DNA of 10,975 nucleotides from an uncultured archaeon (GCA_964534625.1 CAZHRF010000072.1:1-10975), one strand, 5' to 3'. Counted from the first letter of the stretch, positions 866 to 10,975 are shown. Notes: a model not told the origin generated them from the sequence alone. Numbers and translations: made by a program.

Positions 866-2113
866 TTAATCGGGGAACTTTATCCTTATATACACATCTG
901 GTTCTTCGCCATTCCGCTCTAGTCCAGTTACAAATAATGTTTCATAATTACGTATATTTAATTCTTGTAGAGTAGCATTCTTTTTTGCTTCTTGCATATT
1001 TTGTCTATCAATGATCCAAAAATTGGGTAGATATTCAGGATCAAAGGTATACCCTTCTTTCTTTATAAGAGGTAAGATCATATCTATTGTCGTGGTAGGA
1101 GTAACTTTTATTTCAATCATATCAGGCTTGAATGACCCACATAATTGACAGTTCTTATTTGGAGGTTTCTTAAACTGATAAAATTTACCAACTAAGCCAT
1201 TGTATATTAGATAATCTTCATTCATCGTGCCTAATTCTATACCTTTTTGATGGTGTAAAATTTTCACCGCTTCTTGTGATTGAATTGATGCCATAACTGC
1301 ATTAATAGTTATAATAGTAGGATCATGTTGATCAACCATTTTTACAGCCTCATCTATTGTAAATTCACTCTCTCCAGGAAAGTGTTCTTTTACTAGTTTA
1401 TTCGCATACTCTAATACCATCTCCATCTCATTTATTTCCGTTGTATCCGGTGGCCTATTAAATTTCGATTCAAAAAATAGTTGTCCTTTAAGTAAACAGT
1501 GACTTCTTTTTCTTGGTATTCCAACCAATGTACATGCAGCCAGCGTTTCTCTTTCTGGTTCAATTTGGGGATCACATTGTAAACAAGCATTTTTCCCGGG
1601 TAAATAGGTATATACATGCCCATAATATGTCTGTGTTCCTGCATCAATCAAAGGTTTTTGAAAATGTACTGCTCTCCTCATTAATTCATTTCTTGCTGCT
1701 ACTGAATCTAGTCCTGCAATTATCAAATCTGCTTTTGCATAAATTTCTGGATCAACATTTTCCAAAGGTTTGTAATGCCATTCATATTCGCTAAACGGGT
1801 TAATCTTCTTTAATGTCCTGGCTGCCACTTTAGCTTTTGGTTCTCCTTCTTCAGCATCATAAAATAATATTTGTCTATTAAGATTAGAATATTCCACAAA
1901 ATCAAGATCAATCAGATGAAGCTTACCTACCCCCGCCATAGCTAAATTTTTAGCTACTTCAACACCTAACCCCCCTACACCAGCTATAATAACAGTTGAT
2001 TGTTTTAGGGCTTGTTGACTCCACCCAGGTAATCGCAATTGTCTATCTAAACGTTTTCTCTCTTCCTTATCAAAAGTTTCATCAAAAAAATTTGATTGAT
2101 ACCCTTTACTCAT
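866..2113 (-). CDS. Ubiquitin-like activating enzyme E1 (ThiF adenylation domain, catalytic Cys insert, C-terminal ubiquitin-fold domain), UBA2/UBA3-like
   Basis: RLDRQLRL, GVGGLG nucleotide-binding loop, DLDFVEYSNLNRQILF, GLDS, PLIDAGT, two Zn CxxC pairs (C177/C180, C322/C325), catalytic Cys194 in ACTLVGIPRKRSHC (cf. UBA3 MCTIASMPRLPEHC), and an ~85-aa C-terminal extension consistent with a UFD. Confidence 0.92.
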   Translation of the reverse strand: MSKGYQSNFFDETFDKEERKRLDRQLRLPGWSQQALKQSTVIIAGVGGLGVEVAKNLAMAGVGKLHLIDLDFVEYSNLNRQILFYDAEEGEPKAKVAARTLKKINPFSEYEWHYKPLENVDPEIYAKADLIIAGLDSVAARNELMRRAVHFQKPLIDAGTQTYYGHVYTYLPGKNACLQCDPQIEPERETLAACTLVGIPRKRSHCLLKGQLFFESKFNRPPDTTEINEMEMVLEYANKLVKEHFPGESEFTIDEAVKMVDQHDPTIITINAVMASIQSQEAVKILHHQKGIELGTMNEDYLIYNGLVGKFYQFKKPPNKNCQLCGSFKPDMIEIKVTPTTTIDMILPLIKKEGYTFDPEYLPNFWIIDRQNMQEAKKNATLQELNIRNYETLFVTGLERNGEEPDVYIRIKFPD

Positions 2114-2225
2114 TTTTTCACGCTCTTTAAGATGTTAATATATATTTCAAATAGTTTTTTATTATGTTTCTTTCAACTTTTTAGAGGATCATCCAAAAAA
2201 AAGATGGAATCTTTTCCTGCCAGTT

Positions 2226-2255
2226 AAAAAAAAATAAAACTAAATAAAATAAAAA
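2226..2255 (-). terminator. Oligo-T tract downstream of the Ubl gene (putative archaeal terminator)
   Basis: The minus strand reads TTTTTATTTTATTTAGTTTTATTTTTTTTT starting about 10 nt after the Ubl stop codon. Confidence 0.45.
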
Positions 2256-2264
2256 GTGTTTTGT

Positions 2265-2630
2265 TTAACCTGCTGTTGAAACTGGTATCAACAGTACGGT
2301 ATCCCCATCTTCAACACCATAATCTTTCAAAGCATCATCAGGATCACATGTTCTCCCAGCATGACTCAGATGGAATTCTTCTGGAGGTAATCCAAATATT
2401 TGGCCAACAGTATATTTCAAATCTGCAATAGGTGCTTCTTCAGATACAACTAACTTTTCTTGTTTAGGGTTTGGACCAATTGTACTTTGGAAATACACAC
2501 TTATTTTCTTTCCTTTGGGTGTTTTGGCTGTTGCAGGCGTCTTAGATTTAATAGGTTCTTCATCTTCAAATTCTTCTTCATCAAAATCCAATTCTTCAAA
2601 TTTTTCCTCTTCTTCACTCATGTTTTTCAC
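2265..2630 (-). CDS. Ubiquitin-like modifier (beta-grasp fold) with acidic N-terminal extension; C-terminus ...LLIPVSTAG-stop
   Basis: The last 42 aa align without gaps to ubiquitin residues 35-76 (GLPPEEFHLSHAGRTCDPDDALKDYGVEDGDTVLLIPVSTAG vs [42 protein letters not shown]). The true start is probably ATG at 2621 (118 aa), with the GTG at 2630 being part of a GAAGTGA RBS. Confidence 0.9.
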   Translation of the reverse strand: MKNMSEEEEKFEELDFDEEEFEDEEPIKSKTPATAKTPKGKKISVYFQSTIGPNPKQEKLVVSEEAPIADLKYTVGQIFGLPPEEFHLSHAGRTCDPDDALKDYGVEDGDTVLLIPVSTAG

Positions 2631-2784
2631 TTCGTTTTGTTATGTCATAGTAAGGTTATCCGTTTATTCTAATAAAGCTTCTCCTTTAATCAGATAAAGC
2701 ACGTCAATGTCATCATAAGAGTTAAAATTGAATACATTTATCTAGTACCAGAATCATCTTTAACTAACCACATAATCAAAATGA

Positions 2785-3573
2785 ATGGTCGACTCTACTT
2801 TGGTGAACAGCTTGAGACGAAATAACAAAAAACAAAAAGAGAGGATAAAATCTAAAACACCAGATAAGAAAGAAATTAAACGTAAAGCAAAAATTTCTAA
2901 AAGTAAAATTCCTACAGATGGTGAAGAAATAATTCTTCCTCCGGCAAAAAAAAATGTTCATCCCGTGAATGATAAAATACCCAAACAATCTGTTTTAGAA
3001 CAAGAAAGAGAGAGGAATCAATCTTTAACAAAAACTAAAATGCCTAATAAACATAAAGTTCCAGGAAAACAGAAACATAAATATTTTCCAGAAAAGAAGA
3101 ATAAAAAAATACCTAAAGAACGTATAAAGGATAAAAAACCTAAGAAAGACACGTTGGCTAATGATAAAACAAATAGTTTGATTCCCCCTAGATCATCACC
3201 TAAGGATACACCAGACGCAATACCATCTAAATCACGAATCAAAAAAGTTTCTAGATTAAAGAATACAGCACTAAAAAGAGAAAGAAGACAAAGAGAGGAA
3301 CCAGAAAGATCAAAATTCAGGAAACTATTATCTTTATTGTCTAGACCATTGACTAGAAAAGACAAAGAAGAGGCTCTCCCAAATGATGATTCTGATCTTT
3401 TTACCTCTCCAGAACCTATAGAATCACAACCAGTACCAGATGAACCAAAAAGAACTGAACAAAAAGAACGTTCAACACCTGTGACAAAAACAATCAGAGA
3501 AGAAAAAAAGCCTAAAAGAGTAAAAACGCCTAAAAAGGTAAAAACGCCCAAAAAAGATAAAATACCAAAATAA
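2785..3573 (+). CDS. Hypothetical Lys/Arg/Pro-rich, probably disordered protein with C-terminal KTPKK repeats
   Basis: 789-nt open frame, basic low-complexity composition, in-frame 18-nt repeats, no recognisable globular domain; fills the gap between two minus-strand genes. Confidence 0.7.
   Translation: MVDSTLVNSLRRNNKKQKERIKSKTPDKKEIKRKAKISKSKIPTDGEEIILPPAKKNVHPVNDKIPKQSVLEQERERNQSLTKTKMPNKHKVPGKQKHKYFPEKKNKKIPKERIKDKKPKKDTLANDKTNSLIPPRSSPKDTPDAIPSKSRIKKVSRLKNTALKRERRQREEPERSKFRKLLSLLSRPLTRKDKEEALPNDDSDLFTSPEPIESQPVPDEPKRTEQKERSTPVTKTIREEKKPKRVKTPKKVKTPKKDKIPK
3502..3573 (+). repeat. Four degenerate 18-nt tandem repeats encoding EKKPKR-VKTPKK-VKTPKK-DKIPK*
   Basis: gaaaaaaagcctaaaaga / gtaaaaacgcctaaaaag / gtaaaaacgcccaaaaaa / gataaaataccaaaataa; the two central units differ only at synonymous positions. 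Confidence 0.8.
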
Positions 3574-3614
3574 TGGTTATGAATTCAAGGGAAAATTTAA
3601 TGGTTTTTCATTTT

Positions 3615-4202
3615 TCATACAAACAAGGCTATAATTCCGCTATATAAATACAATCCCCCAAATATTATTAGAAAGAGATTATTCAGATAAAGAAATGAAG
3701 TAAGGAAATATGCCAAAGGGATCATTATTGTGAGCATAAAAGCTGTAAATTTTGGAGGTAAACCACCTTCACTTGTACCTGTTAATCTTATGAATGGGTA
3801 ACGAATATAGCTCCTAAACAACAAATAATTGCTGAAGATGTAATAAGGAGTTATGAGTATATCTACCACATTAATTGAATAAGTAAGATCTATATTCTCC
3901 CCTTGCAACTGGCCTGTTATAAATACCATTGCTTCATTTATTTCAAATATGCTTTGAGCCAAAATTAAGATTAGAGGAATTAGGGGTAAAAAAACAACAT
4001 ATGCCACTTCATTGAAGGTTGCGCTGTGTCTAACATAATAAATACTTCTAAACATATAAAATAAAGAAATAAACGCATATAATGCTAAGAAAACAAACAT
4101 TTTTCCATTAAACGAATTCCCTTCTATAAAATAATAGATCGCTATTCCTACTAAGGAAAGAGAGATCAAAAAAGAAGCGGTACCATATAATTTTCTACCC
4201 AT
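3615..4202 (-). CDS. Multi-pass membrane protein (about 6 TM), apparent paralog of the adjacent E3's membrane domain
   Basis: Several long hydrophobic segments; GGAGATGA RBS; in-register identities with the N-terminal domain of 4291..5403. Confidence 0.8.
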   Translation of the reverse strand: MGRKLYGTASFLISLSLVGIAIYYFIEGNSFNGKMFVFLALYAFISLFYMFRSIYYVRHSATFNEVAYVVFLPLIPLILILAQSIFEINEAMVFITGQLQGENIDLTYSINVVDILITPYYIFSNYLLFRSYIRYPFIRLTGTSEGGLPPKFTAFMLTIMIPLAYFLTSFLYLNNLFLIIFGGLYLYSGIIALFV

Positions 4203-4290
4203 TAAAATTCATCTCCAGTATAAATTTATACATTATCTTATTAAATCTTGCACTAATATTTTTATGGTAACAATAAAAATACTTTTGCTC

Positions 4291-5403
4291 TTATCTAATT
4301 TTAGATATGACTTTCTCAACGTAAAATTTGGTGCTCATTCTTAGTTTGGGATGTTTGATATATGCAGCAGATATTTTTGTGTTGCATCTTGGACATAAAT
4401 GAGAATTTGCAAACCACATATTAAGCTCATCCTCATGTGCTGGATACTTACAATGAGGGCATAATATCACTCGTCTTTTATCATTCTTCTTAAAATCTTG
4501 ATAACAAATTATACACTTTAAATCGTCTTTTGTTAATTTTCCTTTTGGTCTAATATTGATTTTACGTGTTTTTCTTTTTGTTTTCGACCTAGTTCTTCTA
4601 GTACTATCCACTTCTATTCCAGGATCCCTGTCAGCTAGAGCATCACTTGACGAAGACCTAGCTGTTGAATCCCTACTTGATCTAGTCGAGACTGTTCGAT
4701 AGCCATTTGATGGTCTTGTGGAAACCGGTCTATGTCTTGATGAGCGCCTGTTAGAAGAGCGACTACCTGTCCTACTTTTTGTTGTTGATCTTCTTGATGT
4801 ACTAGCACTTTTTTTACGAACGGCTGGTATTATATAATGTATCAACATCTGACTGAAAAATATAATGATAAATAGTATCGCTGTTATATCATATACTGCA
4901 GTTAAAAACACATATCGTATCCCTAGTATTAAAGTTAAAAGCAAATGAACTAAAACGGGTAAGGCTTGTTTTCTGATTATTTTTCTATTTATTGCCATTG
5001 CTGCCCATTTTTTACTATGAAAATTTCTAAAGTGTATGGAGAGAATTAACAGAGGGACAACTAGACTAATAGAGATTGTATTTGTGATTATTCGTATATA
5101 AAAAAAAGGCAATTCAAGCGCCAATCCCAAATATAAGTTATCTTGTATTATAGGCGAAACATATGTGCCAAATACAAGAATAACGTAAGGTAAAACTATA
5201 AACTGTAAACTTGCTAGTATTGCATTATAGCTTCTATAATAACTACGTTCTAACAAAAATTTTAATCCTGCTATGATATAGATTGTAATGTATAAAACGA
5301 GTAAACTTGTTTCTATGGCTTTGTCTATCAAGAAGTACAATAAACTTACCATTAGACCTAAAATAGCTAAACTAAGATATGTTTTACTGTTATTTAGATC
5401 CAA
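4291..5403 (-). CDS. Membrane-anchored RING-type E3 ligase (about 6 TM, Ser/Arg-rich linker, C-terminal variant RING)
   Basis: aa 1-195 hydrophobic; aa 196-289 S/R/T/K-rich; CIIC-x14-CPHC-x4-HEDE-LNMW-x6-CPRC with the E2-contact Ile, Trp and Pro of RING ligases; TTG start; clustered with E2 and JAB genes. Confidence 0.82.
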   Translation of the reverse strand: MDLNNSKTYLSLAILGLMVSLLYFLIDKAIETSLLVLYITIYIIAGLKFLLERSYYRSYNAILASLQFIVLPYVILVFGTYVSPIIQDNLYLGLALELPFFYIRIITNTISISLVVPLLILSIHFRNFHSKKWAAMAINRKIIRKQALPVLVHLLLTLILGIRYVFLTAVYDITAILFIIIFFSQMLIHYIIPAVRKKSASTSRRSTTKSRTGSRSSNRRSSRHRPVSTRPSNGYRTVSTRSSRDSTARSSSSDALADRDPGIEVDSTRRTRSKTKRKTRKINIRPKGKLTKDDLKCIICYQDFKKNDKRRVILCPHCKYPAHEDELNMWFANSHLCPRCNTKISAAYIKHPKLRMSTKFYVEKVISKIR

Positions 5404-5454
5404 TGGTGATTACTCCGATTTTCATTATCTCTTGTAACTATTTTTTTAATCTGT

Positions 5455-6189
5455 CTATTTATTCATTATTAGCTGGATTGAATCATAAGCTGCTTCTGTA
5501 CTTAATCCTTCTACTTCAAAATCAATTGCATAATACGATTGTTTATCTTCAGCCACTCTAAAAATTTTAAACCCATACGAGTTTTCAGAGATCATTAAAG
5601 GATCAACTACCAAGGCTATAGATCGATTCCAAAAAGTTTGGTATCTTAAATGCGTTCTAATATCATCATCACTCAAAAACGGAGTGTACGAAGGATGTGA
5701 ATGAGCCCAACCTATAATAAACTGTTTATCTTTCATTTTTTCTACAATTTCAGTAAAGATTTTTTGATCAATAATTTCAACTTTTACAGCATCACCTTGT
5801 GTCACTGGCCAATAATCTCGAACAACTAGTTGTTCAATAGGCGTATCTTCATTTTTGATAAAACCTGTAAGTAGCCCTATTATCTCAACCCATTTTTTTT
5901 GAGGAATAGTCCTATTAGCATAAGATAAAGCGTGTTTTGATAGTTTTAGATATGCTTTTGGCTTGATTACTATCTCAGGTTTTTGTTCAATGGAAATAGT
6001 CTCTTCGGTAATGTCAGCATCAAACTCTTCATTATCTTCATCGTCTATGGGTATTTCGTCTTCCATTTCCATATCTTCAATATGTAATTTTTTTTCTATC
6101 GCTTGAACTTTTTTTAACAGCTCTCTATAAGTAATAGGGATGGTTTCTTTTTCCTCATCTTTCATTTTTTTCACCAACATATCTACCAA
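5455..6189 (-). CDS. MPN+/JAMM (JAB) metallo-isopeptidase, Rpn11/CSN5/AMSH-like, with acidic N-terminal extension
   Basis: Catalytic Glu in VEIIGLLTG; GWAHSHPSYTPFLSDDD fits HxH-x7-S-x2-D; ALVVDP. The start may instead be ATG 6180 or ATG 6165 (the latter is preceded by GGTGA-AAAAAA). Confidence 0.92.
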   Translation of the reverse strand: MVDMLVKKMKDEEKETIPITYRELLKKVQAIEKKLHIEDMEMEDEIPIDDEDNEEFDADITEETISIEQKPEIVIKPKAYLKLSKHALSYANRTIPQKKWVEIIGLLTGFIKNEDTPIEQLVVRDYWPVTQGDAVKVEIIDQKIFTEIVEKMKDKQFIIGWAHSHPSYTPFLSDDDIRTHLRYQTFWNRSIALVVDPLMISENSYGFKIFRVAEDKQSYYAIDFEVEGLSTEAAYDSIQLIMNK

Positions 6190-6704
6190 TATGATTTAGC
6201 GTATTTTTTGTTGATGGATTTTGCTTTCTTGACAAATTTTCGCTTATTATTCAAAAATTCGATAGCTGCTTTCTTATTAAAAACATCATTAGGATTGATA
6301 AAAGCACCATCAACATTGAACATAGCTAAAATCGAATATATGACGGTGTTAATATTTTTACTTGGTGACCATCCATCAGGTTTACCGATTAAATCATTAT
6401 CAACTAACGCAAGACAAATATTACGTTTTCCCGGATATTCCTTAGGATTAGGCCAGAAATTAGGATGCCATATAGGTGTATGCAATCTTACAAACGGAGG
6501 TTTATAGGGATAGTTTTTGCCAAACTTAATTTCTAGTTTATATTTGCCGCCCACATAAGGCGTCCCCCTCGGTCCTTTAAATCCTACTGCCAAATGTGTC
6601 ATAGTCTTTTTGCCTGTAGGAAAAGATTTTACTTGCTCAATTATTCCCTCTTTATGTAATTTTCTGAGGCTTTCATATTCTTTTATAATCCTTTGTTTTC
6701 TCAT
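6183..6704 (-). CDS. Ubiquitin-conjugating enzyme E2 (UBC fold)
   Basis: RIIKEY helix 1, GPRGTPYVGG, YPYKPPFV, IWHPN, catalytic Cys in NICL, WSP, and NPNDVFNKKAA. Confidence 0.95.
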   Translation of the reverse strand: MRKQRIIKEYESLRKLHKEGIIEQVKSFPTGKKTMTHLAVGFKGPRGTPYVGGKYKLEIKFGKNYPYKPPFVRLHTPIWHPNFWPNPKEYPGKRNICLALVDNDLIGKPDGWSPSKNINTVIYSILAMFNVDGAFINPNDVFNKKAAIEFLNNKRKFVKKAKSINKKYAKSYW

Positions 6705-6812: not shown

Positions 6813-7856
6813 TTACGAGTCAAGGTAGACAATTTCATATGAAGCTTTGTATAATCTATTCATTATAGCTAATCCTTCTTTTTCCTCTTCCACAGATTCA
6901 ACATAAGCCATCGTACAGTCTTCGTCATCCAATTTACGTAGACATTCGAAAAGATTCTTTTGGATTTCTTTTTTATCTTCTCCAACTAAGATAACCGATT
7001 CTGCTCTTTTATGTACATGTTCGTTATGTAAACACAAAACTGCTATTTTTGCTTTATCTAATCGAATAATCTCTCGGTTGATAAACGTTTCTTGTGTAGC
7101 CTTATCACCATGTACCAATATTAAGCGTGTATTGGGTGAATAATGTTTATACTTTAACCCAGGACTTGTAGGACTTGTTCTTATTTTAGGATCAACACTT
7201 TTTAGGATGGTTATATTTGGTAGATATTGTTTAAGAGTTTCATATGTAATGCCTCCTGGTCTTAAAATTGTTGGAGGGTCAATTACGATATTTAATACAG
7301 TTGATTCGACTCCAATCTTTGTTTTTCCTCCATCTAAAATGAGCGGGATTTTTCCTTGAAAATCTTCATAGACTCTTTTTGCATTTGTGGCACTTGGTTT
7401 TCCAGAAAGATTAGCACTTGGGGCAGCAATTGGTGTTTGTGCTTCTTCAATTAGTTTCAAAGCTATAGGATTATTAGGAATACGTATTGCAACAGTATTT
7501 AGCCCACCTGTTGTAATTGTAGGTACTTTTTCACTTTTTTTAAAAAGGAGCGTCAATGGACCAGGCCACAAAGCTGTCATCAACTGTTTATATTCTTCAG
7601 GAAAGTAGCTAACTAACGGATATATCTGTTTGATATTACTTACATGCAAAATTAATGGATTGTCACTTGGTCTTCCTTTTACTGCAAAAATCTTTTTTAC
7701 AGCATGAGGATTCAACGCATCAGCTCCCAGACCATAGACTGTTTCTGTTGGGAAAGCAACAACATCCCCCGATTTGATTATTTTGGCTGCTTGTTGGATT
7801 TTGTTCTTATCGTACGAATGTTTTAAATCCTCAATTATTGTCTGCAAATTGTTCAT
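6813..7856 (-). CDS. sua5: Threonylcarbamoyl-AMP synthase (YrdC plus SUA5 domains), t6A tRNA modification
   Basis: AFPTETVYGLGADA, KGRPSDNPLI, WPGPLT, APSANLSGKPS, LRPG, linker SPGLKYKHYSP, C-terminal AIMNRLYKA. Confidence 0.96.
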   Translation of the reverse strand: MNNLQTIIEDLKHSYDKNKIQQAAKIIKSGDVVAFPTETVYGLGADALNPHAVKKIFAVKGRPSDNPLILHVSNIKQIYPLVSYFPEEYKQLMTALWPGPLTLLFKKSEKVPTITTGGLNTVAIRIPNNPIALKLIEEAQTPIAAPSANLSGKPSATNAKRVYEDFQGKIPLILDGGKTKIGVESTVLNIVIDPPTILRPGGITYETLKQYLPNITILKSVDPKIRTSPTSPGLKYKHYSPNTRLILVHGDKATQETFINREIIRLDKAKIAVLCLHNEHVHKRAESVILVGEDKKEIQKNLFECLRKLDDEDCTMAYVESVEEEKEGLAIMNRLYKASYEIVYLDS

Positions 7857-8006: not shown

Positions 8007-8753
8007 ATGAAAACGATTATTGTAGCAGCCCCCTTTAGCGGAATAGGAAAAGGCATTGTACCTAAACTTCTAGAGCTATACGAGGTCATAGGAATAAGTA
8101 GAAGTGTAAACAAAAAACTTTTGTCTGAATATCAAAATATAGGTAAATTCACTTTTGTCAAGTCCGATCATACTACTGAAGAATCAATAATCAAGGCCAT
8201 ACAAGTAGCAACCACAGTGAATAGTGACATCCATGGTTTAATTCATTTTGTAGGTGGAAGCTTAATGAGCAAAAAGGTAGAAGATCTTTCAGCTGAGGAT
8301 TTTACTAAAGTACTTGAAGTTAATTTACACTCTGCCTTTTTGTATAGCCGTGAGGTCTATAAAGCGATGAAGAAAAATAAGGGTGGAAACATAATTTTAT
8401 TTGGTTCAACCACTGGCAACAGTCCAACGAAAAAAAAATTGCCTTATGCAGTAGCAAAAGCAGGCATCCACATGTTAACTAAAGCTCTTGCATTAGAAGG
8501 AGCAGAACACCAAATTATTGTTAATACTATTGCCCCTAGCTATGTAATGACAGAAAGACATATTGAGGATTTAAAGAAAGAAGCTAATAAAAGAGATCAA
8601 CAATTTAAGGAAAGAGTAAAACACAAAAAAAATAAGAACCCATTAAAAGATGTATTATATCCAGAAGATCTCTATGAATTAATAGAATTATTACTGCATA
8701 CTAAGAAAATACAAGGACAAACTATACAGATTGATTTGGGACAATTATTGTGA
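8007..8753 (+). CDS. Short-chain dehydrogenase/reductase (FabG-like SDR)
   Basis: Variant Rossmann motif AAPFSGIGKG, VLEVNL, catalytic Ser in FGST, YAVAK (YxxxK), VNTIAP. Confidence 0.88.
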   Translation: MKTIIVAAPFSGIGKGIVPKLLELYEVIGISRSVNKKLLSEYQNIGKFTFVKSDHTTEESIIKAIQVATTVNSDIHGLIHFVGGSLMSKKVEDLSAEDFTKVLEVNLHSAFLYSREVYKAMKKNKGGNIILFGSTTGNSPTKKKLPYAVAKAGIHMLTKALALEGAEHQIIVNTIAPSYVMTERHIEDLKKEANKRDQQFKERVKHKKNKNPLKDVLYPEDLYELIELLLHTKKIQGQTIQIDLGQLL

Positions 8754-9265: not shown

Positions 9266-10027
9266 GTGATTATCATTTCTCAAGAATATGTCATAGAAAC
9301 ACAAAATCTTGAAAAAATATATAAAACAGACGACGTAAAAGCAGTAAATGGCTTAAATCTTAAAGTGAAGAAAGGCGAGATTTATGGTTTTATCGGTGCC
9401 AATGGTTCGGGTAAGACGACTACGATTAATATGCTTACTGGAACTTTAAAGCCAACTAGTGGTTCAATTAAAATTTTAGACATGGATGCAGTTAAACATA
9501 GATATATATTAGCCCCTGATATTGGTATTGCACCCCAAGACTATTCTATCTATCCTGATCTAACAGTCAAAGAAAACATCCGATTTTTTGCTAAGCTATA
9601 TGGTATACATGGAGATAAACTCAAAACAAAGATGAAACAATTGCTTAACATTATTCATCTTCAAGATGAAAAAGACACCTTGGGTAAAAATCTATCAGGG
9701 GGGATGAAACGACGAGTTAGCCTTGCAGCAGCTCTAATTCACGAACCTAAAGTGGTTTTCATTGATGAAGCGACTGTTGGAGTAGATCCCATTCTCCGTA
9801 ATTTCTTTTGGGATTATTTTCGAAAGTTACGAGATGAAGGCACAACATTAGTTATTACTAGTCACGTAATGGATGAAGCAGAGAAAGCGGATAGAATAGG
9901 ATTAATGCGAGCAGGCAAACTTATCGAAGAAGGAACCCCTTCCGAATTAAAAGACAAATATGCTGTAGAAACAATAGAAGAAATTTTTCTACTACTTAGC
10001 ACAGGAGTGAAAATTAATGAAATCTAA
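9266..10027 (+). CDS. ABC-2 type exporter ATP-binding subunit
   Basis: Walker A GANGSGKTT, Q-loop APQ, signature LSGGMKRR, Walker B VFIDE, H-loop ITSH. Confidence 0.95.
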   Translation: MIIISQEYVIETQNLEKIYKTDDVKAVNGLNLKVKKGEIYGFIGANGSGKTTTINMLTGTLKPTSGSIKILDMDAVKHRYILAPDIGIAPQDYSIYPDLTVKENIRFFAKLYGIHGDKLKTKMKQLLNIIHLQDEKDTLGKNLSGGMKRRVSLAAALIHEPKVVFIDEATVGVDPILRNFFWDYFRKLRDEGTTLVITSHVMDEAEKADRIGLMRAGKLIEEGTPSELKDKYAVETIEEIFLLLSTGVKINEI

Positions 10028-10975
10028 TAAAAATAATCTCCCTATTGTACTGGAAAATGGACATAAATCTGTTTCCAGAATTATTACTGTCACACATAGG
10101 GTTCTTAAACAATTTTTACGCGATCGTCAGACGTTTGCGATGATATTGATTATTCCCTTACTAGTGATGATTGTATTTGGATTTTCGCTCTCTGGCGAGT
10201 TCAAGAATCTTCCTATACTCATAGAAAATGCCGATCAAGGCTATCCGCCTGATGCTTTACCAGAGGATCAATGGTTTAATTATGGCACTAATATTACTGA
10301 ACAGCTGAAACAAGATGAAACTATAGACTATCATGAAGGAACTTATAATACTTCTTTAGCTGATGTTGACAATGGTAAATATTATGCTGCTATTTACATT
10401 CCCAATAATTTTTCGGAAAGCTTGTATCGGCGCATTGTCTATAATCATAATATTACTATTGTAGTGACAATATATATTGATGCTACCAATCCTACTGTGA
10501 GAATGAGTATCATGAATGCACTTGGTAATTCTCTACAAGAGTCACTTGGTGCTGATTGGATTGTGGTACACGAAACATTTGCACACGGAGGAGAAGAATA
10601 TTCAGGATTGGATACCAGTATACCTGGTGTGATGGCTTTTGTTTTAACGTATTTAGTATTACTCATTTCAACACTAACAATGATCAGAGAAAAACTTGTG
10701 GGTACAGAAAATAGATTATTTGCCACTCCTCTTCGTTCATCAGAAAAAATATGTGGATATTCTCTCGCTCTACTTGTCATTGCAGTATTAACTTCAATTG
10801 TTATTCTTATTGTAGGTCTAGGGATATTTGGTACAACATTAAGAGGGAGTTTCTTCCTCTTGATAGTTGCAATAGTGATGTACAGTCTGTTACATGTATT
10901 AATCGCAGTATTTGTTTCAAATTTCGCAGAAAATGAATTACAAGCAGTTCAAATGGCCCCAATTATAACTTTGCC
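10017..10975 (+). CDS. ABC-2 type exporter permease (YbhR/YbhS-like), truncated by the window end
   Basis: ATG at 10017 overlaps the ATPase 3' end, with a GGAGTGA RBS. Manual translation gives MKSNK...RVLKQFLRDRQTFAMILIIPLLVMIVFGF... and, in the same frame, the conserved IREKLVGTENRLFATP motif followed by TM helices. Confidence 0.9.
   Translation, partial: MKSNKNNLPIVLENGHKSVSRIITVTHRVLKQFLRDRQTFAMILIIPLLVMIVFGFSLSGEFKNLPILIENADQGYPPDALPEDQWFNYGTNITEQLKQDETIDYHEGTYNTSLADVDNGKYYAAIYIPNNFSESLYRRIVYNHNITIVVTIYIDATNPTVRMSIMNALGNSLQESLGADWIVVHETFAHGGEEYSGLDTSIPGVMAFVLTYLVLLISTLTMIREKLVGTENRLFATPLRSSEKICGYSLALLVIAVLTSIVILIVGLGIFGTTLRGSFFLLIVAIVMYSLLHVLIAVFVSNFAENELQAVQMAPIITL

Follow-up and report, generated by a model that had tools for sequence, protein, structure and literature searches.

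Gene content and organization of the locus

The stretch of DNA analysed here (10,975 nucleotides; GCA_964534625.1, CAZHRF010000072.1:1-10975; hereafter the window) is the entire contig C72 of a 3.37 Mb assembly of 32% GC from an uncultured archaeon. It carries a cluster of genes for a putative ubiquitin-like (Ubl) conjugation pathway, namely an E1 activating enzyme, an E2 conjugating enzyme, a JAMM isopeptidase, a ubiquitin-like modifier (hereafter the tag) and a multi-pass membrane protein with a RING variant (Table 1). By sequence, the genome is assigned to the Heimdallarchaeia (Asgard), most likely to the family Heimdallarchaeaceae, and named homologs of the window proteins carry the labels Heimdallarchaeota, Heimdallarchaeaceae, Kariarchaeaceae and Hodarchaeales. 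The public taxon labels of these assemblies are noisy, and the family codes f1-f7 used below were assigned by the analysis tool.

Read along the minus strand, the genes follow in the order E2, JAMM, membrane RING protein and a 195-residue membrane protein, with intergenic gaps of -7, 51 and 88 bases, and then, past a plus-strand Lys-rich gene, tag and E1. The original prediction, made from this DNA, had placed five components with intact motifs within 866-6704 on one strand, together with two embedded genes. Pfam matches and motifs bear this out for the five components, all on the minus strand, but the second embedded gene, the Lys-rich one, is on the plus strand, and the cluster is therefore formed by two minus-strand blocks and not by a single operon. 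A scan for sigma-70 promoters, with a bacterial-type model ill-suited to archaea, remained at chance level.

Table 1. Genes and motifs of the conjugation cluster (positions in the window)
Feature	Position	Strand	Basis
E1 activating enzyme, 415 aa, single chain, UBA3/UBA2-like	866..2113	-	Pfam ThiF 1e-55
Ubiquitin-like tag ending S-T-A-G; probable start ATG at 2621	2265..2630	-	Pfam ubiquitin 9e-8
I-K-S-K-T-P motif (Lys30) in the tail of the tag, candidate acceptor lysine	2535..2552	-	Motif conservation; putative function
Low-complexity protein rich in Lys and Pro, 262 aa, gene divergent from that of the tag	2785..3573	+	Position, composition, motif
Membrane protein of six helices with no RING, 195 aa, paralogous to the membrane domain of the ligase	3615..4202	-	hhalign, model
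Membrane RING protein, 370 aa: six transmembrane helices, Ser/Arg-rich linker, C-terminal RING variant	4291..5403	-	Hydropathy, model
RING variant, residues 297-340	4384..4515	-	Alignments A2 and A4
JAMM/MPN+ isopeptidase, 244 aa	5455..6189	-	Pfam JAB 3e-13
E2 conjugating enzyme, 173 aa	6183..6704	-	Pfam UQ_con 8e-27

Activating, conjugating and deconjugating enzymes

The closest solved relative of the E1 is the NEDD8 E1 subunit UBA3 (E 4e-35), followed by UBA2. Its GxGxxG ATP loop is found at residue 45 and its catalytic Cys194 (codon 1532-1534) aligns with the UBA3 catalytic motif, and both the ATP loop and the Cys motif are present in 40/40 orthologs. The E2, which is 55-82% identical across Asgard orthologs, presents HPN80 and the catalytic Cys97 (codon 6414-6416), with two insertions of about seven residues, one on each side of the Cys. 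It retains the PxxPP and WSP loops, to which E3 binding is ascribed in PMC5654768. The metal site of the JAMM protein is complete (Glu102, His163, His165, Ser173 and Asp176), the motif being intact in the orthologs as well.

The membrane RING protein and its RING-less paralog

According to hydropathy and an AlphaFold2 model (mean predicted local distance difference test score, pLDDT, 83), the membrane RING protein comprises six transmembrane helices, the third and fourth of which are separated by an outer beta-hairpin; a disordered linker rich in Ser and Arg and the RING follow. Since basic residues cluster in loops 2 and 4 and past helix 6, the RING is predicted to lie in the cytoplasm, and the outer hairpin of the model, together with the conserved inner loops, may point to a sensor role. 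The RING ligands are C297, C300, C315, C318, H323, E326, C337 and C340 (C4-H-E-C2). Together with W330 they are invariant in 39 Heimdall and in 31 Heimdall-plus-Loki sequences (alignments A2 and A4), and Glu occupies ligand 6 in 67 of the 68 representatives with a readable RING. Glu marks this membrane RING family, since His takes this place in the remaining RING proteins encoded by the genome. The modelled RING aligns with U-box/RING structures including RING1B/BMI1 (Z 7.5-7.7, root-mean-square deviation (rmsd) 3.3, 70 residues). What had been predicted as a polytopic membrane E3 thus does have six predicted transmembrane segments and a RING, the latter being a C4-H-E-C2 variant, and the protein quite probably has E3 activity.

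Other membrane-anchored RINGs are encoded in the same genome (L074:6237-7538 and, in G000, C91:4947-6707, C70:1172-1804 and C17:54994-56016), with about 8, 4, 2 and 1 predicted transmembrane segments, respectively, and all with His at ligand 6; as judged from these sequences, membrane RINGs are a recurrent theme in the window genome and not special to the cluster. A second, stand-alone copy of the C4-H-E-C2 variant is found after the membrane RING gene at L058:7490-8916.

The 195-residue protein matches the membrane domain of the ligase (hhalign 94%, E 9e-8), its model (pLDDT 88) has the secondary-structure elements in the same order, and it was recovered by the transmembrane-domain profile of the ligase from 1.84 billion protein representatives, a library that carries no taxon names. 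By these comparisons it is a true paralog, as had been proposed. All 96 matches to that profile were this family, its fragments or the paralog, and the profile had no match among PDB sequences and no consistent Pfam family. In fold searches, the paralog model retrieved nothing clear from the PDB (Foldseek; VIA, both wide and second look) or from the ESM Atlas (TM-score by query below 0.5 at best). For the model of the full ligase, the matches were confined to RING/U-box domains and generic bundles. A new fold is not implied by these results. A related-locus search returned one distant Helarchaeota RING only. The paralog occurs in 54 of 400 Asgard genomes, all within the Heimdallarchaeia and each with one full-length copy, which indicates an add-on and not a core part. 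The odds that it is a partner of the ligase are put at about even, and a complex prediction for the ligase membrane domain and the paralog (score 0.00) carries no weight either way.

The Ala-Gly tag and the K-[TIV]-P motif

The tag presents a ubiquitin-family fold, an acidic and probably disordered N-terminal tail and the end S-T-A-G, in agreement with the AG-ending, tailed modifier that had been described. Its Ala-Gly falls in register with ubiquitin G75-G76, and both residues are invariant in 52/52 tag homologs, some of which extend 1-5 residues past the Gly in the manner of pro-forms and would thus need a protease. The position of ubiquitin I44 is occupied by Ser (49/52 homologs), that of K48 by Arg, Val or Ile among the homologs, with Arg in the window copy, and that of K63 by Asp in the window copy; the lack of equivalents of these three residues speaks against a degradation signal of the kind used in endoplasmic-reticulum-associated degradation (ERAD).

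Two tandem tags are found in Hodarchaeales and Kariarchaeaceae-type loci (L041, L042, L043, L046-L050, L067 and L068). They differ at the position of ubiquitin R72, an E1 specificity site, with Val in one and His, Phe or Ile in the other, and in some loci one of the pair is devoid of the tail motif. A HerA-type ATPase fused to a C-terminal tag paralog is encoded beside the cluster at L056:14072-15814, where the paralog ends R-A-G, and probably also at L059:9691-11448. In Loki-type loci, proteins with two transmembrane segments carry a C-terminal tag paralog devoid of the Ala-Gly end (L062:12887-13681, L063:5768-6616 and L069:4097-4891), and these membrane-anchored ubiquitin-like domains sit between a winged-helix gene and a second tag.

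The tail carries a K-[TIV]-P motif in 46 of 53 tags, Arg never replacing the Lys, and Lys30 is kept in 46/52. The Lys-rich protein has no Pfam match but is found at the same position and strand in the loci of its family. It holds 8 copies of the motif versus 1.08 in shuffles, none of 500 of which reached 8, and no protein of the genome is denser in K-[TIV]-P. In 25 other loci, the proteins encoded at the corresponding position hold 1-10 copies each. The Loki neighbours are coiled coils that do not align with the Heimdall ones after masking, so that the two groups are linked by position, composition and motif only. Across 26 Lys-rich neighbours the residue preceding [TIV]-P is Lys in 152 cases and Arg in none, versus 508:241 genome-wide, whereas position -2 takes K or R. 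Such strictness is the pattern that an isopeptide acceptor would show, and the proposal that K-[TIV]-P is an acceptor site is given slightly less than even odds, the Lys-rich protein being a candidate substrate or partner.

The motif was also observed elsewhere. The second densest carrier of the genome is an unlinked 302-residue protein with five Pro/Ala/Thr repeats that contain K-T-P (G000 C5:84065-84973), a possible substrate. In Hodarchaeales, a small VapB-antitoxin-like and probably DNA-binding gene, divergent from the tags, has K-[TIV]-P in the middle of the protein (L046:13541-13921, L047:13776-14225, L048:4495-4875 and L050:13228-13623).

A separate Gly-Gly ubiquitin/ESCRT locus

The window was described as free of genes for the endosomal sorting machinery ESCRT, which holds for the window but not for the genome. 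Contig C36 (L073:4678-12194) encodes a Gly-Gly ubiquitin with its own E1, a UEV-Vps28 fusion, Vps22, Vps25, Vps4 and two Snf7 proteins. The presence of Gly-Gly ubiquitin, E1 and ESCRT genes on a separate contig indicates that the window cluster represents a second pathway, and the two E1 proteins are 41% identical over 188 residues. The C36 ubiquitin has Val at the I44 patch position, and a hydrophobic-patch residue is required for UEV binding in Heimdall ubiquitin, according to the accessible part of PMC9192718. By its sequence, the Ala-Gly tag is probably not read by ESCRT.

Conservation, synteny and descent

In all 40 other Asgard loci examined, the same genes adjoin as far as the contigs reach, and 34 of them have full-length E1, E2, JAMM and membrane RING proteins. 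The 20 loci that were chosen by their ligase come from Heimdallarchaeia; they retain the E2-JAMM-ligase block, and in most of them that contig also holds paralog, tag and E1. The 20 further loci, picked by E2 or tag and mostly Loki-type, present the order tag-E1-E2-JAMM-ligase on one strand in all cases, the ligase being broken or cut by assembly gaps in 3. Compared with this order, the gene order of the window is a rearrangement. The neighbourhood survey that the original prediction had called for thus recovers a cluster that is syntenic across Heimdallarchaeia (including Hodarchaeales) and Loki-type lineages, and the cultured Ca. Lokiarchaeum ossiferum also carries it (NEF87_002992 to 002996). 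That cluster is covered by contigs from four RNA libraries of one study, one run yielding a 4346-base contig that ends near the ends of the five-gene block. These contigs, from which strand, level and a single transcript cannot be read and in which DNA carry-over is possible, are a weak hint of transcription.

The tag profile matches 194 of 400 Asgard genomes, and close E2 orthologs are spread alike. Within the class, tag, E2 and paralog were detected in 24, 22 and 23 of 30 genomes of family f1, in 9, 7 and 9 of 12 of f3, in 19 each of 22 of f5 and in 2 each of f7, and they were not found with these queries in f6 (12 genomes), f4 (3) and f2 (1); the three genes are therefore gained or lost together by family. 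The E1 tree, midpoint-rooted and built with no outgroup, sets Heimdallarchaeia apart from all others at 100/100 and for the most part groups by family, a pattern compatible with vertical descent that began before the Loki and Heimdall lineages separated. The distances of E1, E2, JAMM and RING protein correlate at 0.68-0.85, values that shared ancestry alone gives. Synteny, joint gain and loss by family and the separate C36 locus support the earlier proposal that this Ubl pathway is dedicated and reversible and includes a RING protein embedded in the membrane.

Comparison with known systems

In the available parts of PMC5654768 and PMC6043591, the ubiquitylation operon of Ca. Caldiarchaeum subterraneum consists of Rpn11, Ub, E2, E1 and a small RING protein. 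The window cluster is alike in gathering a tag, a single-chain UBA3-like E1 with an ATP loop and a separate catalytic Cys domain, an HPN-type E2 with catalytic Cys and PxxPP and WSP loops, a linked Rpn11-like JAMM protein with an intact metal site and a RING protein, and some of its orthologs resemble the Caldiarchaeum system in having pro-forms of the tag. It differs in that the tag ends in Ala-Gly and not in di-glycine, carries the acidic tail and has no I44/K48/K63 equivalents, in the C4-H-E-C2 RING borne on a six-helix membrane domain instead of a small soluble RING-H2 E3, in the two E2 insertions and in the added membrane paralog and Lys-rich gene. Ub-ESCRT clusters are known from Asgard genomes (PMC9192718), and a Helarchaeia cascade has been reconstituted (bioRxiv 10.1101/2023.07.25.550441). 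These clusters belong to the same organisms and enzyme superfamilies, but involve a Gly-Gly ubiquitin read by UEV-Vps23, and the accessible text mentions no Ala-Gly tag or membrane ligase. A discrete Ub region in Lokiarchaeota, noted in the accessible part of PMC9192718, may be this cluster counted by domain annotation.

Like the SUMO pathway (SUMO2/3, SAE1-UBA2, Ubc9), the cluster combines a probably disordered tail bearing a conserved motif lysine (Lys30, a candidate for the acceptor role), a UBA2/UBA3-related E1 and a short linear motif common to tag and candidate substrates. A motif lysine is likewise carried by the SUMO2/3 tail. However, the tag scores better as ubiquitin than as SUMO-like (the SUMO-like Pfam family stays below cut-off), and the cluster has one E1 gene versus a two-subunit E1, a JAMM versus a cysteine protease and K-[TIV]-P versus psi-K-x-E. 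Asgard Ufm1 homologues have been reported (PMC12962969, accessible in part), and the single-Gly end preceded by I-P-x-x-x-x and the theme of a membrane-associated ligase recall the UFM1 pathway. UFM1 identity, considered for the tail of the tag, was rejected by a sequence test in which 0/19 tags matched PF03671 at E up to 5 and 19/19 matched ubiquitin; the window genome has no Pfam Ufm1 match, its cluster E1 is far nearer UBA3 (1e-35) than UBA5 (1e-14), and its E2 has the HPN that UFC1-type enzymes do not have.

As far as these partly accessible sources go, the kind of system is already known from Caldiarchaeum and from Asgard Ub-ESCRT clusters, and its new features are an Ala-Gly tag, a membrane-borne RING of the C4-H-E-C2 type, a RING-less paralog and K-[TIV]-P. 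No published description of these four was found in a literature coverage that was partial and had key subscription papers outside it. Within the same coverage, no paper, and no supplement of the paper on that genome, was found naming the L. ossiferum locus tags of the cluster. Burroughs 2011 reportedly treats RING proteins of prokaryotes that carry membrane segments; this would make the present findings less novel.

Proposed pathway and alternative explanations

The preferred reading, with a probability of about 0.6, is that the cluster encodes a second self-contained Asgard ubiquitin-like conjugation pathway beside Gly-Gly ubiquitin/ESCRT, with a regulatory outcome. The basis for it consists of genes, motifs, paralogy, synteny, co-occurrence and tree congruence with taxonomy. 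The chemistry of E1 activation, E2 transfer and JAMM removal is well established. Accordingly worded for this cluster, the single-chain UBA3-like E1 would adenylate the terminal Gly of the tag and load the tag on Cys194, from which it would move to Cys97 of the E2. The six-helix membrane protein would offer its cytoplasmic RING variant, with one Cys-Cys-His-Glu zinc site, to the charged E2, so that transfer would be confined to, or triggered at, the membrane; in Heimdallarchaeia, the RING-less paralog would probably be its partner subunit. The tag would be put on lysines, most likely the K-[TIV]-P ones of its own tail, forming chains, and of the Lys-rich protein, and the JAMM protease would trim pro-forms and take the tag off again. 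A partnership of E2 and RING is supported by the PxxPP and WSP loops kept by the former and by W330 kept in the latter. The outcome is somewhat favoured to be non-degradative, a regulatory role of the SUMO/NEDD8 kind being more likely than a proteasome or ESCRT signal.

Several observations weigh against this reading. The Pfam match of the RING is weak (zf-RING_2 3e-4, below cut-off), Glu stands at a Cys-ligand position, and in place of the basic linchpin that usually follows the last Cys there is in most cases an Asn, Ser or Asp, from which it follows that the RING may be a weak or non-catalytic binder of the E2; moreover, the genome encodes at least 8 other RING proteins that could serve the E2. 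As for the motif, it was defined from the same proteins in which it was counted, its copies stem from internal duplication and shared descent, so that 152:0 overstates independence, and K-T-P would suit kinase or DNA-binding tails as well. The solubility of the candidate substrates leaves the membrane location of the ligase unexplained. Finally, these queries did not recover the system from several near-complete genomes, among them the closed G004 and G007 of the window's own family, and it is therefore dispensable.

One alternative is an ERAD-like membrane quality control, in which the RING and the paralog recognise damaged or surplus membrane proteins and tag them for removal by Cdc48/proteasome. 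This explanation is considered improbable. The analogy drawn in the original prediction with ERAD-type ligases (Hrd1, Doa10/MARCH) stands as far as architecture is concerned, namely a polytopic membrane domain and a predicted cytoplasmic RING, C-terminal after a long linker as in Hrd1. It is not supported for the RING type, which is RING-H2 (C3H2C3) or RING-CH (C4HC3) in Hrd1/gp78 and Doa10/MARCH6 and has an invariant Glu at ligand 6 here, or for the membrane domain, for which no sequence relative was detected in the searches above. The second row of the wide fold search was a chain of the HRD1-SEL1L-XTP3B structure (Z 7.8, rmsd 3.2, 113 aligned, 4% identity), but it is tied with unrelated helical bundles and lies below the noise level of the tool for such folds. 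Cdc34/Ubc7-type E2s have an insertion after the Cys, as does the E2 of the cluster. Hrd1/gp78 and Doa10/MARCH6 build K48 ubiquitin chains, whereas in the tag the position of K48 holds no Lys and that of I44 is taken by Ser, the K63 equivalent being absent as well. Archaea do possess Cdc48 and 20S, according to the accessible part of PMC13328587, but no AAA-ATPase or proteasome gene is among the conserved neighbours in the loci examined, as judged by shared protein clusters with no family search, and the linked motif-bearing proteins are soluble.

The unusual RING could also indicate that it is not a working E3, E1 and E2 conjugating alone, with the E2 reading K-[TIV]-P as Ubc9 reads the SUMO consensus and the membrane proteins acting as sensor, scaffold or substrate. 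The Glu at ligand 6, the missing basic linchpin, the short linear motif common to tag tail and neighbours and the two E2 insertions around the active site, which could form a motif pocket, all agree with it. Nevertheless, across lineages from Loki-type to Heimdall the RING preserves seven canonical ligands, W330 and its RING/U-box fold, the E2 retains both E3-binding loops and the ligase gene never leaves the JAMM-E2 block, and this possibility is held to be less probable still. An antiviral or stress-conflict system like the bacterial Bil/Bub or cyclic-oligonucleotide-based antiphage signalling (CBASS) E1-E2/JAB modules, tagging virion proteins at the membrane, is very improbable, for the self-contained E1/E2/Ubl/JAMM cassette, patchy within Asgard, the generic PADLOC matches (2023 library) for E1 and JAB and the HerA-type ATPase fused to a paralogous tag beside one locus are outweighed by PADLOC matches limited to the ThiF core and a weak JAB, with none for E2, tag or membrane proteins and no family-specific E2, Ubl or effector profile matched, by high conservation and housekeeping flanks (Sua5, isochorismatase), and by an E1 tree that follows taxonomy versus the mobile, patchy inheritance of such modules.

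Evolutionary implications

Eukaryotes possess several insulated ubiquitin-like pathways and many membrane-embedded ligases, whereas each archaeal system studied so far has one Gly-Gly cascade and a small soluble RING. If Hodarchaeales and Lokiarchaeia inherited a second cascade vertically, complete with a tag, enzymes and a membrane ligase of its own, pathway multiplication and membrane-bound ligation would date from before eukaryogenesis, and the cluster suggests that tagging at membranes is older than eukaryotes. In a bolder version, which is regarded as rather unlikely, the Loki/Heimdall common ancestor already had two orthogonal E1-E2-E3 pathways. One would have supplied ESCRT with Gly-Gly ubiquitin; in the other, a RING complex embedded in the membrane would have answered a signal from the membrane or from outside by building chains of the Ala-Gly tag on K-[TIV]-P proteins. 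If true, this would represent a prokaryotic SUMO-like consensus-site modification steered from the membrane and a possible stock of eukaryotic UBA3/UBA2-type pathways or membrane E3s. The origin of ERAD is not demonstrated by the cluster alone.

Neighbouring genes

The flanks of the window encode an isochorismatase-family protein, Sua5, a short-chain dehydrogenase and an ABC ATPase with its permease (101-745, 6813-7856, 8007-8753 and 9266-10975), which are not common to other loci and are therefore placed outside the system. In two related genomes, an M20 peptidase and a 113-residue gene are inserted between the paralog and the Lys-rich gene (L044:6412-7937 and L045:10944-12492).

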